Assembly (NCBI GenBank): GCA_964580285.1
Contig: CAZOKB010000005.1
Span: 221-64,220, forward strand
Direction of reading: 5' to 3'
Length of the DNA: 64,000 bases
DNA from: an uncultured Bdellovibrionales bacterium
GTDB lineage: Bacteria; Patescibacteriota; Minisyncoccia; Moranbacterales; UBA1568
The notes below the pieces were generated by a model, which did not search any database, was not told the DNA's origin, and saw only the letters and a program-made list of their open reading frames with translations. The position numbers and the translations under genes are program-made. Position 1 is the first letter of the stretch. Each line of letters begins with the position of its first letter. Shown here in pieces: positions 7,585 to 10,733 of this stretch.

Positions 7585-8238
7585 ATGCACTACCACCCGC
7601 TCGTTCAGTACTTCATTTTGGAAGGCGTCCCGGTCCTTACTGTTACGCTGCTTCTCATGCTGCCGATTATTGCAACACTCGTTGCCATCTTCCGCCAAGT
7701 CATCGGGATTAAGGCCTTCGGTATCTATACACCCTCCATCATCACCTTTGCGCTTTTTGCCATGGGTGAACTCAAGTATGGCGTGGCAGCCTTCGTATCC
7801 GTCATCGTGGTCGGTATGCTGGCCCGTCTCATCATGAAGCGTTTTCGTTTACTGTACCTTCCTCGAGTCGCCATTACGCTCACTATCATTTCGCTCACCA
7901 TGCTCTTCCTCCTTTTTATTGGTGGGCTTAATCAGCGCACCGGCTTCGCTGGCGCCTCGGTCTTCCCGCTCCTCATCATGATTACGCTCGCCGAAAAATT
8001 TGTGGCTACCCAAATTGAAAAAGGTACTCGTATTGCGGTTATCTTGGCGATTGAGACTTTGGTGATTTCGACTGTCGGCTATTTTCTTATCCGTTCCGAA
8101 ACCATCACCGGGGCCGCTCTTGCCTACCCGCTCTGGGTTATTACCCTCACCCTTCTGATCAATATCGCCCTCGGCAAATGGTCAGGACTGCGACTCTCCG
8201 AATACTGGCGCTTCCGAAAAGTTTTCAAACACTTGTAG
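7585..8238 (+). CDS. Seven-TM membrane protein (7TM associated with ATP-grasp/transglutaminase-like systems)
   Basis: 217 aa, six to seven hydrophobic helices; immediately upstream of two ATP-grasp genes. Confidence 0.5.
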   Translation: MHYHPLVQYFILEGVPVLTVTLLLMLPIIATLVAIFRQVIGIKAFGIYTPSIITFALFAMGELKYGVAAFVSVIVVGMLARLIMKRFRLLYLPRVAITLTIISLTMLFLLFIGGLNQRTGFAGASVFPLLIMITLAEKFVATQIEKGTRIAVILAIETLVISTVGYFLIRSETITGAALAYPLWVITLTLLINIALGKWSGLRLSEYWRFRKVFKHL

Positions 8239-8314
8239 GCCAGCTGAAAAAGAGGGCACGAGAAGGAGCGCGGCTATTTGTTAATTGTTTTTTGTTGACT
8301 GTTAGTCGGATCAT

Positions 8315-9709
8315 ATGTTTGAATTTTTCAAAAAAAGCCAGAAGCTCCTCGGCATGAATGCTCGCAATCTTGATTTTGTACGCCCTTTCAACCGGCGGCG
8401 TGGCATGCGTATTGCTGACCAAAAACTGCTGTGTAAGCGTATCCTTTCCGGCGTTCACCTTCCGGTCTCACCGCTTATTGGAAAAATCCGTAATCGAGAA
8501 GAGCTCGAGAATTTTGATTGGAATAAACTCCCCAACAGCTTTGCCCTCAAACCCAATCGCGGATTCGGTGGCGAAGGTATCCTTGTCGTCTATGCCCGCA
8601 AAAAAAATCGCCCAGATGCTTGGGTAAAAGCCAACGGCACCATTGTAACCATCGAAGACCTCAAAACACATATTGAGAATATTCTCGATGGATCATTTTC
8701 ACTTTCCAATACTCCAGATATCGCCTTTTTTGAAGAACGGCTCAAGCTTCTCAAACTCTTCAAGCCCTACGCCTACAAGGGCATCCCTGACATCCGCGTC
8801 ATCGTCTTCAACCGCATCCCGGTCATGGCCATGCTCCGCCTTCCGACCAAAACCTCGGACGGCAAGGCCAACCTTCAGCAAGGCGCTATCGGTGTCGGTA
8901 TCGATATGGCAACTGGAACCACAACCACGGCTATCATGGGCAAGGGTCATATAATTGAGAAAGTCCCCGGCACGGGGCTCCCTCTCTCCGGTATCAAGAT
9001 CCCGTACTGGAAACAGATTCTCACGATGGCCGTCGAGGCTCAGTCTGTCTCCTCGCTCGGATTTTTGGGTGCTGACATCGCTATCGATCGTGATCGTGGG
9101 CCAGTCATTCTCGAACTCAATGCTCGACCGGGACTTTCCATTCAGCTCGCGAATTTTTCCGGCCTCAAGGAACGGCTCGCTCGGGTACGCGGCATTACCA
9201 TCAAAACCACCGAGCGCGGCGTCCGTCTCGGCCGCAATCTTTTCGGCGGAGAGATCGAGGAAGAGATCGAGGAGATTTCCGGACGCCGCGTGATCGGCAC
9301 TGTCGAGAAAGTAAAGCTCATTGGCAAAGATGGCAAAGAAATCGAAGTCGAAGCGAAGATTGATACCGGCGCTGACTCCACTTCCATTGATATTTCCCTC
9401 GCGCGCGAACTCGGATTCGGCGAAGCAATTGATGAATTTCAGACCCGCGTCGGCGAGCGCAATGTTCTCGAAGAGCTTTCCAAAGAAGAACGCGAAAAAC
9501 TGTTTTCAGACATTCCCGATCTCGCTGACACAGTTCCCGTGCGCTCCTCACACGGCATCTCCTACCGCCCCATGATTCGCATCGACCTCGTGATGGATAC
9601 ATTTACCATCCCTGCCAAAGCATCCGTCATTGACCGCTCTCGCCTCGAATACAAAATGATTGTCGGCAAAAAAAATCTCGGAAAATTCCTTATCGATGTA
9701 AGTAAGTAA
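8315..9709 (+). CDS. ATP-grasp ligase (RimK/alpha-L-glutamate-ligase-like, sugar-transfer-associated type) fused to a C-terminal retropepsin-like aspartic protease domain (DTGA motif)
   Basis: 464 aa; ATP-grasp motifs in the first ~300 aa; C-terminal IDTGADSTSI resembles the so-called Zn-protease retropepsin-like domain. Confidence 0.6.
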   Translation: MFEFFKKSQKLLGMNARNLDFVRPFNRRRGMRIADQKLLCKRILSGVHLPVSPLIGKIRNREELENFDWNKLPNSFALKPNRGFGGEGILVVYARKKNRPDAWVKANGTIVTIEDLKTHIENILDGSFSLSNTPDIAFFEERLKLLKLFKPYAYKGIPDIRVIVFNRIPVMAMLRLPTKTSDGKANLQQGAIGVGIDMATGTTTTAIMGKGHIIEKVPGTGLPLSGIKIPYWKQILTMAVEAQSVSSLGFLGADIAIDRDRGPVILELNARPGLSIQLANFSGLKERLARVRGITIKTTERGVRLGRNLFGGEIEEEIEEISGRRVIGTVEKVKLIGKDGKEIEVEAKIDTGADSTSIDISLARELGFGEAIDEFQTRVGERNVLEELSKEEREKLFSDIPDLADTVPVRSSHGISYRPMIRIDLVMDTFTIPAKASVIDRSRLEYKMIVGKKNLGKFLIDVSK

Positions 9710-9710
9710 T

Positions 9711-10733
9711 TTGGCTGTTTGGAATATGAAAAACGAGGCCTTTCTTAAAACCATCAAGCATGGCGGATTCCGATCACTCGTAAAACGGGCGTTAGAAGTT
9801 GGCATTGATGTCGAATTTATTTCTCCAGAAAACAAACTGATCCGCTTCAAGTACGGCAATGATCTCTTTTTTATCCGCGGAAGAAATGCACCTGTTTATC
9901 GTCGTATGGGAGACATGACGAAAAATAAAGTCACCACAAAAACCGTGCTCGACGGCGCAGGTATTTGCACTCCAAAAGGAATTGAGGCGCTGTCCTTCAG
10001 TGAAGCAAAGCGCCTTATGACAGAACATCACATCAAATACCCCGTCATTCTCAAACCGAGTGCTGGCACCCGTGGACTGGGTGTCACCTGGAACATCCAA
10101 ACAGAAATGGGACTAAAAAAAGCTCTCATTCATTTTAAGGTTGCTGCAAATGAGCACGCGTTTTTAACTTCAAAATCCAAAACTTTTCTCGTTGAAGAAA
10201 TGTTTCAGGGAAATGAATATCGGGTTATGGTTCTCGATAAAAAAGTTGTTTCTTGTGTCGAGAAAATTCCTGCCAGCGTTATAGGCGACGGCCAATCCAC
10301 GATTCAGGAGCTTATCCATACTTTTAATCAGACCCGTCTTCCGGGATTTTTTATCCATGTCGACAAGATCGTCCGCGAGACGCTCAAGAAAAATAATCTG
10401 GATCTCAAATCAGTTCTTCCGAAAGGCCAGGTCCTCCGGTTGCGCAATAATCTGAACATGTCCGATGGCGGCCGTTCTATCGATGTCACATCACAACTCC
10501 ATCCAACACTGAAGGCTCTTTGCATCAAAGCAATAGAAAGCATCGGACTTACTTATGGAGGCGTAGATCTTATGGCTCACGATCTTCGTGATCCAAAAAC
10601 TCGTTATGTGATTTTGGAAATCAATTCTAATCCTTACTACAACATGAACGAGAAGCCCCTCGCTGAAGGCAAAGGAGTAGATATTTCCTGGCTCCTTCTC
10701 AAAAAGATGTTTCCAAGACTCAAACGGTCATAA
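9711..10733 (+). CDS. ATP-grasp enzyme (cyanophycin-synthetase/RimK-like ligase)
   Basis: 340 aa; glycine-rich loop KPSAGTRGLGV and motifs GGVDLM...LEINSNP typical of ATP-grasp ligases. Confidence 0.6.
   Translation: MAVWNMKNEAFLKTIKHGGFRSLVKRALEVGIDVEFISPENKLIRFKYGNDLFFIRGRNAPVYRRMGDMTKNKVTTKTVLDGAGICTPKGIEALSFSEAKRLMTEHHIKYPVILKPSAGTRGLGVTWNIQTEMGLKKALIHFKVAANEHAFLTSKSKTFLVEEMFQGNEYRVMVLDKKVVSCVEKIPASVIGDGQSTIQELIHTFNQTRLPGFFIHVDKIVRETLKKNNLDLKSVLPKGQVLRLRNNLNMSDGGRSIDVTSQLHPTLKALCIKAIESIGLTYGGVDLMAHDLRDPKTRYVILEINSNPYYNMNEKPLAEGKGVDISWLLLKKMFPRLKRS

Follow-up and report, generated by a model that had tools for sequence, protein, structure and literature searches.

A Patescibacterial variant of the Rlo-type system that combines a 7-TM protein, a ligase-retropepsin fusion and a variable ATP-grasp cassette

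Results

A membrane protein, a ligase-protease fusion and a second ligase are encoded together

A three-gene locus was characterized in a 64,000-nucleotide stretch of DNA (the window; contig CAZOKB010000005.1 of GenBank assembly GCA_964580285.1, positions 221 to 64,220 of the forward strand), for which an earlier note, made from the sequence alone, had proposed a protein with seven transmembrane segments (7-TM), an ATP-grasp ligase fused to a retropepsin-like protease and a second ATP-grasp ligase. Three open reading frames (ORFs) of the same orientation (plus strand) lie precisely where that note had placed them, and profile searches with PF14402, PF14397, PF05618 and TIGR02068 bore out all of its domain calls, with matches much stronger than chance would produce. 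Gene 1 (7585-8238) encodes a stand-alone 7-TM protein of 217 aa, which belongs to the RloB/7TM_transglut family. Gene 2 (8315-9709, 464 aa) encodes a fusion protein in which an RloC-type ATP-grasp ligase (ATPgrasp_ST/alpha-L-glutamate-ligase-like; aa 1-310, 8315-9244) is followed by a linker with an acidic amphipathic motif (aa 310-324, 9242-9286, FGGEIEEEIEEISGR) and by a retropepsin-like aspartic protease of the RimB/RloA family (aa 325-464, 9287-9709), whose DTGA motif is found at nucleotides 9362-9373. Gene 3 (9711-10733) encodes a stand-alone ATP-grasp protein of 340 aa that is similar to the cyanophycin synthetase G domain; were translation to begin at an alternative ATG at 9726, the product would have 335 aa.

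In Pseudomonas aeruginosa, the rloABC genes encode a secreted retropepsin (RloA), a 7-TM protein (RloB) and an ATP-grasp protein (RloC) (Lormand et al., 2025; PMC12239564). Judged by sequence comparison, Rlo is the closest relative of the locus described here and RimK/RimB a more distant one, and we regard the locus as an Rlo-type system in a variant form from the Patescibacteria (Candidatus Moranbacteria). The variant is distinguished by a 7-TM protein that lacks the transglutaminase domain, by a ligase-retropepsin fusion with an invariant acidic linker and by a variable cassette of ATP-grasp genes. As in RloABC operons the functions are encoded together, the three genes being co-oriented and separated by 76 bp and 1-16 bp, while 40 bp separate gene 1 from ruvC and 63 bp separate gene 3 from the PBP1A region. 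No convincing terminator was found between the genes on the plus strand, and a scan of the locus for promoters and terminators gave no signal above shuffled controls. A gene 2 product of identical sequence is encoded, within an unchanged gene order, by 11 metagenome contigs, and named relatives belong to Candidatus Moranbacteria/Moraniibacteriota, within the Patescibacteria or Candidate Phyla Radiation (CPR).

Gene 2 joins an RloC-type ligase to an active-looking retropepsin

Residues 17-292 of gene 2 matched PF14397 (ATPgrasp_ST) with an E-value of 7e-69 and 232.6 bits (cut-off 31.4). The protein scored 291.7 bits on TIGR02291, which is under the cut-off of 314.2, and 33.4 bits on the RimK model TIGR00768 (cut-off 143.4); PRK10446 gave an E-value of 0.021 and the Pfam RimK model a weak match, which does not place the ligase in the RimK family. 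Residues 11-311 showed 40% identity to RloC of Aeromonas and Legionella, whose canonical rloABC operons were used for comparison. Because of the large difference between the TIGR02291 and TIGR00768 scores and the identity to RloC, the ligase groups with RloC and not with RimK. In a CPR-wide alignment of 16 gene 2 sequences with 44-87% identity to the window protein, the ATP-grasp lysine K79 and the Mg triad D254/E267/N269 were invariant. An AlphaFold2 (AF2) model of gene 2 reached a predicted local distance difference test (pLDDT) score of 78, and its N-terminal part matched the folds of ArgX/LysX, RimK and Ddl.

These scores bear on the idea that the locus is a module for the polyglutamylation and trimming of ribosomal protein S6, in the manner of RimK and RimB. 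An active cytoplasmic ligase-retropepsin fusion is known in the RimBK hybrid of Desulfotalea, which carries its protease at the N-terminus (Little et al., 2025; PMC11957791), and the weak Pfam RimK match would fit such a role. The domain order of gene 2 is however opposite to that of RimBK, the ligase scores about 292 bits on the RloC-type model against 33 on the RimK model, and the strict linkage to a 7-TM gene described below, which extends even to fusion, has not been seen as a feature of Rim loci. The rpsF gene encoding S6 is absent from the window. A role in S6 modification is very unlikely.

The C-terminal part of gene 2 (residues 326-462) matched PF05618 above the cut-off (E-value 1.3e-7, 32 bits, cut-off 27) and contains the motif D350-T351-G352-A353. 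It aligned with RloA (E-value 2e-6), and the RloA3, RloA1 and RloA2 models were matched with E-values from 4e-7 to 9e-4 and 19-30 bits (cut-offs 210-280). Among known structures, PDB entry 9g58 matched the protease domain with an E-value of 9e-4. When the C-terminal part of the AF2 model was subjected to Foldseek, a phage acid protease was matched (E-value 4e-8, TM 0.72), as were caulimovirus, retrovirus and DDI1-type proteases or domains, which confirms the retropepsin fold that the earlier note had proposed. With DTGA, the C-terminal glycine G451 and the fold match, the domain has the features of a clan AA retropepsin.

In the CPR-wide alignment D350-T-G-A, R418, R441 and G451 were invariant and K348 was nearly so. 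According to our own alignment, K348, D350, R418 and R441 would occupy the positions of K46, D48, R114 and R137 of RloA. RloA cleaves poly-alpha-Glu within stretches of at least eight Glu; its residues K46, R114 and R137 coordinate polyglutamate, and R114 and R137 are required in vivo (Lormand et al., 2025; PMC12239564). By its residues the retropepsin of gene 2 thus looks catalytically intact. The domain (residues 325-464) contains no Cys and no signal peptide, and in this it resembles the cytoplasmic RimB and not RloA, which is secreted and has a signal peptide and a disulfide pair; here the protease makes up the C-terminal domain of a ligase in the cytoplasm.

Gene 2 is most conserved outside both catalytic domains, namely in the linker, FGGEIEEEIEE(I/L)(S/T)G. 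FGGEIEEEIEE was identical in the window and in 43 of the 45 genome loci analyzed below, while its synonymous codons varied freely, which points to selection at the protein level. More widely, the consensus is FGG-E-h-E-x-E-h-E-x-h-[ST]-G-[KR]. Canonical RloC proteins terminate at the position of F310, so that only the fusion has this motif. It directly precedes the first strand of the protease domain, and residues 312-328 are predicted to be disordered (AF2 pLDDT below 50). In retroviral proteases an N-terminal processing site is found at the same place, directly before the first strand. A role as cleavage site only is nevertheless disfavored, since the i, i+4, i+7 spacing of hydrophobic residues and the terminal SGK of the linker persist in relatives with a dead or degenerate protease motif, and since the linkers of some distant active fusions are non-acidic. 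The linker could act as a docking helix, a pseudo-substrate, a self-processing site or a primer.

Gene 1 corresponds to the membrane part of RloB

Gene 1 matched PF14402 (7TM_transglut) with an E-value of 6e-24, over profile positions 57-247 only, which is the transmembrane (TM) part. Likewise, the NCBIfam RloB model was matched over positions 313-507 of 508 only (64 bits, cut-off 900), and an alignment with residues 296-502 of the 512 aa RloB of Aeromonas showed 26% identity (E-value 3e-12). RloB is a 7-TM protein whose transglutaminase domain is inactive (Lormand et al., 2025; PMC12239564). Gene 1 comprises the seven TM helices without this ectodomain, and has 217 aa compared to 508-512 aa for RloB in Legionella and Aeromonas. 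Since CPR bacteria are monoderm and have no periplasm, their envelope may account for the missing periplasmic transglutaminase-like domain as well as for the cytoplasmic location of the protease.

The AF2 model of gene 1 (pLDDT 85.5, predicted template modeling score 0.80) consists of seven long helices. From the positive-inside rule, an outside N-terminus of about 16 aa, an inside C-terminus and a basic cytoplasmic tail are predicted; the basic segments R37-K43 and R81-R94 and the tail KWSGLRLSEYWRFRKVFKHL would then all be cytoplasmic. A natural fusion of a 7-TM protein to an ATP-grasp ligase (P0375) agrees with this topology. No match of gene 1 to the PDB was obtained with phmmer, and Foldseek returned no PDB match below an E-value of 0.7, the best being RnfA/NqrD with TM 0.45-0.5.

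A homology of gene 1 to PgsC/CapC of poly-gamma-glutamate synthase was also considered and rejected as unsupported. Comparison of the family alignments with hhalign gave a probability below 1%, and there were no Pfam cross-matches with PgsC/CapC (PF14102) in either direction, the CapC/PgsC sequences being taken from plasmids. The resemblance is confined to a repeated G-x-x-x-G-x-x-x-P motif.

The 7-TM gene and the fusion gene form the conserved core

Conservation of the locus was analyzed with one genome per species, which gave 45 loci, 41 with upstream DNA and 43 with downstream DNA. In each of the 41 loci with upstream DNA, the gene immediately upstream of the fusion gene was a homologue of gene 1. 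The pair spans Moranbacteria, Paceibacteria, Parcubacteria, Dojkabacteria and unclassified CPR and was followed down to 43% identity. At least one extra ATP-grasp gene adjoined the fusion gene in 39 of the 43 loci with downstream DNA. The neighborhood profiling that the earlier note had suggested as a check thus reveals a conserved linkage of the 7-TM gene to the fusion gene.

Searching 1.84 billion representative proteins exhaustively yielded 2375 relatives, 435 of them with E-values of at most 1e-30. When the best 150 were sorted by length, 40 had 421-520 aa, 43 had 701-830 aa and 39 were stand-alone RloC-like proteins. The class of 701-830 aa (43 representative clusters, of which five were checked with Pfam) has the architecture ATPgrasp_ST-retropepsin-MATCAP. 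Among the examples checked with Pfam were also fusions of ATPgrasp_ST and retropepsin to a second ATP-grasp domain (P0270) or to YdjC, and fusions of 7TM_transglut to ATPgrasp_ST (P0375, P0383). The 7-TM proteins of relatives can bear extracellular PKD or transglutaminase-like ectodomains; in one locus, a PKD-PKD-7TM protein is followed by the triple fusion and then by three ATP-grasp genes with a second MATCAP gene interspersed. Together with the strict linkage of the 7-TM gene, the natural fusions uphold the idea, put forward in the earlier note, of a membrane-associated system of several ligases and a protease.

In the MATCAP-fused class, the retropepsin motif is mostly degenerate (DTS, DPx, NTx) and both polyglutamate-binding arginines are lost, which suggests that the carboxypeptidase replaces the endopeptidase there. 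In MATCAP fusions of about 780-816 aa (P0256, P0272, P0267, P0271 and others) the pseudo-protease is apparently retained as a scaffold.

Further architectures were observed at the margins of the family. In one locus (L061, 5001-7801), a prenyltransferase/cyclase-repeat protein comes before a 7TM_transglut-ATPgrasp_ST fusion of 576 aa and a separate Transglut_core gene after it, with a gene containing an intein/LAGLIDADG nearby. Haloarchaeal plasmids (Halobacterium sp. DL1, L058, 3501-4331; Salinirubellus, H4) code for an unannotated RloC-like ATP-grasp protein with 36% identity, beside transposases, and for a PF05618-like protein annotated as RimK/LysX. With these plasmid relatives, the family extends into Archaea.

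The position of PBP1A was compared across the same loci. PBP1A lies directly downstream of the cassette in the window and in most Moranbacteria loci; the adjacency is restricted to Moranbacteria and is gone in Paceibacteria, Dojkabacteria and other CPR loci, whereas adjacency to RuvC reaches beyond Moranbacteria. The tie to PBP1A that the earlier note had suggested is therefore inseparable from inherited synteny.

This pattern has to be weighed against an explanation in which the stem peptides or cross-bridges of peptidoglycan are tailored. Here the ATP-grasp ligases would attach amino acids to the peptidoglycan precursors of the adjacent PBP1A, the variable cassette would determine a bridge chemistry particular to each lineage, and the 7-TM protein would couple the reaction to lipid II. 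ATP-grasp ligases that build peptidoglycan side chains exist, for example the D-aspartate ligase of Enterococcus. Moreover, rlo mutants of Pseudomonas are defective in cell shape, sensitive to beta-lactams and prone to hypo-osmotic lysis, and a function in peptidoglycan homeostasis is suspected by the authors (Lormand et al., 2025; PMC12239564). However, where the PBP1A adjacency is lost (L035, L037-L043, L047, L048, L059, L062) the cassette still follows the 7-TM gene and the fusion gene. The locus encodes nothing similar to Mur ligases or Fem transferases, and the conserved retropepsin with its polyglutamate-type channel would have no obvious role in bridge formation. We consider this explanation unlikely.

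Gene 3 is a lineage-specific accessory ligase

Gene 3 matched the cyanophycin synthetase model TIGR02068 over region 163-474 of 862, which is the G domain, with an E-value of 5e-59 and 200 bits (cut-off 850). The GshF model matched nearly as well (E-value 6.5e-51), and the relatives in the PDB were CphA1 (7lg5, E-value 2e-36; 8fxh, E-value 1.7e-33) and GshF (3ln7). Both CphA1 and GshF lengthen a peptide at its C-terminus. In orthologues of gene 3, K115, D286/E303/N305 and the loop NLNMSDGGR were invariant, and the loop aligned with ANLSTGG of CphA. Public pipelines name stand-alone members of this family, of about 330 aa, cyanophycin synthetase.

Taken at its word, this automated annotation would have gene 3 make cyanophycin or a cyanophycin-like storage polymer, and its best model and PDB matches are indeed cyanophycin synthetases. 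Cyanophycin synthetases consist of N, G and M domains, whereas the 340 aa of gene 3 hold the G domain alone, at a score far under the cut-off; since the N and M domains are missing, the label very probably over-annotates these proteins. Models of the GshF type and of N-acetylglutaminylglutamine synthetase give nearly as good a match, and in sister genomes gene 3 is swapped for unrelated types of ATP-grasp. Synthesis of such a storage polymer is extremely unlikely.

Orthologues of gene 3 (at least 48% identity) were found in 12 of the 45 loci, all in Moranbacteria-like genomes, so the trio, which the earlier note had treated as one system, does not hold together as a unit. Seen from gene 3, all three sampled family members (48-51% identity) sit in the same cassette. 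Where the orthologue is missing, the slot is filled by one to three other ATP-grasp genes, which are RimK-like, YheCD/TTL-like or CphA-like at 22-33% identity, and occasionally it also holds a GT4 glycosyltransferase, a MATCAP/DUF1704 peptidase or a DUF3541 domain. Gene 3 is a lineage-specific, interchangeable accessory ligase and not a fixed member of the system.

Genomic surroundings of the locus

Upstream of gene 1 lies ruvC (7044-7544), and downstream of gene 3 lies PBP1A (10797-13388), followed on the minus strand by a DciA-like gene (13450-13755), dnaN (13764-14894) and dnaA (15149-16591). Around 14500-15000 the sign of the GC skew switches and GC content falls to 0.34-0.39; with dciA, dnaN and dnaA alongside, the chromosomal replication origin lies probably within a few kb of the locus. 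Upstream of ruvC lie two genes for helix-turn-helix regulators of the TrmB family (4767-5546 and 6230-6973), whose Pfam matches are strong in one case and weak in the other; this arrangement is kept on all contigs with the identical locus. A putative YebC-like ORF was noted by eye at 1254-1970. In other CPR genomes the cluster comes after YebC-RuvC (L062/L063, 1780-12414; L059, 639-1831), and in L062 it stands between ruvC and ruvA-ruvB, so that it appears to have been inserted into the ruv region.

The window further contains ten tRNA genes (33965-34663, 36299-36467, 38531-38714 and 42758-42834), arranged as three groups and an isolated one. Besides tRNA, no family reached the threshold in an Rfam scan of the whole window. 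A function in anti-phage defense was rejected, as PADLOC gave no matches.

Discussion

The conserved core of the locus comprises an RloB-like 7-TM protein reduced to its membrane domain and a cytoplasmic RloC-type ligase with an intact C-terminal retropepsin. On balance, and with moderate confidence, we favor the view that this Rlo-type core makes and trims an acidic peptide or polymer in association with the membrane. In such a system, the N-terminal part of the ligase would dock on the basic cytoplasmic face and the C-terminal tail of the 7-TM protein, and would then, at the expense of ATP, extend the C-terminus of a growing peptide or an acceptor by acidic residues, of which alpha-linked glutamate is the most likely. 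The fused retropepsin, acting as a homodimer with a channel lined by Arg and Lys, would cut or size the acidic chain. An accessory ligase such as gene 3 could subsequently put a different residue on the peptide carboxylate and so give rise to a lineage-specific product, which the 7-TM protein may pass to the envelope; alternatively, the 7-TM protein may gate the reaction.

Several results weigh against this interpretation. Neither structure nor profile comparison showed gene 1 to be significantly similar to known transporters or to PgsC/CapC, and the proteins of the locus do not reach the NCBIfam equivalog cut-offs for RloA, RloB and TIGR02291. We know of no RloC-type ligase, from any organism, with a demonstrated product or substrate. 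The protease is cytoplasmic here while RloA is secreted, so that export of the product does not follow from the Pseudomonas model. Its degenerate motif in the MATCAP relatives implies that protease activity is dispensable in part of the family, and the glycosyltransferases or YdjC in some cassettes hint at a sugar-containing acceptor instead of a free peptide.

Two of these points, the cytoplasmic protease fused to its ligase and the 7-TM protein without a transporter-like fold, would also fit a cytoplasmic buffering of glutamate and polyglutamate that involves no export. Free glutamate is a major osmolyte, and the 7-TM protein could sense membrane tension or osmolarity and turn on the docked ligase, which would polymerize glutamate until the protease frees it again. 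RimB cleaves poly-alpha-Glu and stimulates its synthesis by RimK, and together the two enzymes make and then degrade free poly-alpha-Glu (Little et al., 2025; PMC11957791). The Rlo phenotypes are osmotic, and glutamate-polyglutamate homeostasis was raised by the authors (Lormand et al., 2025; PMC12239564). Such buffering would however leave unexplained the one to four further and differing ATP-grasp ligases and the MATCAP-type carboxypeptidases of the cassettes, as well as the extracellular PKD or transglutaminase-like ectodomains on the 7-TM proteins of relatives. It therefore appears improbable to us.

What favors a membrane-associated acidic product is the architecture of the family. The fusion of protease and ligase argues that both act on the same molecule, and the fusion of 7-TM protein and ligase argues for a physical complex at the membrane. 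That a MATCAP carboxypeptidase stands in for an active retropepsin argues that the product has a trimmable acidic C-terminus, and the swappable accessory ligases argue for a heteropeptide that varies between lineages. The favored view also draws on the polyglutamate-binding residues kept by the retropepsin, on the cleavage of poly-alpha-Glu by RloA and RimB and the stimulation of its synthesis by RimB, and on the finding that deletion of rloB or rloC suppresses the hypo-osmotic lethality of an rloA1-3 triple mutant (Lormand et al., 2025; PMC12239564; Little et al., 2025; PMC11957791). The main value of the CPR variant lies in these constraints on how Rlo systems work, which in Pseudomonas affect antibiotic tolerance, biofilm formation and cell shape (Lormand et al., 2025; PMC12239564). 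The products of gene 2 and gene 3 are small soluble proteins (464 and 340 aa) suited to reconstitution in vitro.

A bolder extension of the acidic-product reading, which is speculative and on present evidence not likely, would see in these loci a CPR toolkit built on a 7-TM platform. The RloC ligase and one to four swappable ATP-grasp writers would be combined with retropepsin or MATCAP erasers to produce a so far unrecognized, lineage-variable acidic peptide polymer or tail of the envelope, the linker would serve as a self-processed primer or pseudo-substrate, and the whole would amount to a bacterial version of the tubulin tail code.

Comparison with known systems

The associations of these domains are said to have been first predicted in comparative genomics by Iyer et al. 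in 2009. The earlier note was right that the prediction had been made computationally, but its statement that such systems remain experimentally uncharacterized no longer holds, as experimental work on RloABC (PMC12239564) and on RimK, RimB and RimBK (PMC11957791) was reported in 2025. Literature searches turned up no publication on the CPR variant.

A likeness can be drawn to the eukaryotic tubulin tail code, in which TTL/TTLL ligases are paired with MATCAP, VASH or CCP peptidases. Related CPR loci pair TTL/RimK-like ligases with MATCAP metallopeptidases, writers with erasers of acidic C-terminal tails, and with its many Glu residues the linker, ...GGEIEEEIEE, looks similar to the acidic tail of tubulin. 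The likeness is no more than an analogy: the window has no MATCAP gene, and neither a tubulin-like acceptor nor homologous targets were identified. Gene 3 shares its subfamily, the Mg triad and the N-L-S/M-x-G-G loop with the G domain of CphA1/CphA2 and the C-terminal ATP-grasp domain of GshF, which attach an amino acid to a short peptide at its C-terminal carboxylate; unlike these enzymes it lacks the N domain, the Mur-ligase-like M domain and the gamma-glutamylcysteine ligase domain.

With RimK, RimB and RimBK the locus shares a cytoplasmic ATP-grasp ligase, in the Rim enzymes a glutamate ligase, paired with or fused to a retropepsin, which in those enzymes cleaves poly-alpha-glutamate; in the locus, too, ligase and protease would act on the same acidic chain. 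It differs from RimBK in the order of the domains, which is ligase-protease here and protease-ligase there, and from RimK in that its ligase belongs to the RloC-type ATP-grasp clade and has an obligatory 7-TM partner, with no evidence pointing to S6.

The closest system is RloABC, with which the locus shares the combination of a PF14402 7-TM protein, a PF14397 ATP-grasp ligase, which here scores below the cut-off of TIGR02291, and a PF05618 retropepsin with DTGA motif in one operon. The retropepsin of the locus retains the Arg and Lys residues that bind polyglutamate. Compared to RloB, both the N-terminal anchor and the inactive periplasmic transglutaminase domain are missing from the 7-TM protein (217 versus about 510 aa). 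Compared to RloA, the protease has neither a signal peptide nor disulfide cysteines, and a Glu-rich linker joins it to the C-terminus of the ligase. The locus further adds one or more variable ATP-grasp genes downstream. Finally, while RloB was reported to be 96% proteobacterial, the host here is a monoderm member of the CPR, and the locus thus extends the RloB family far outside the Proteobacteria.

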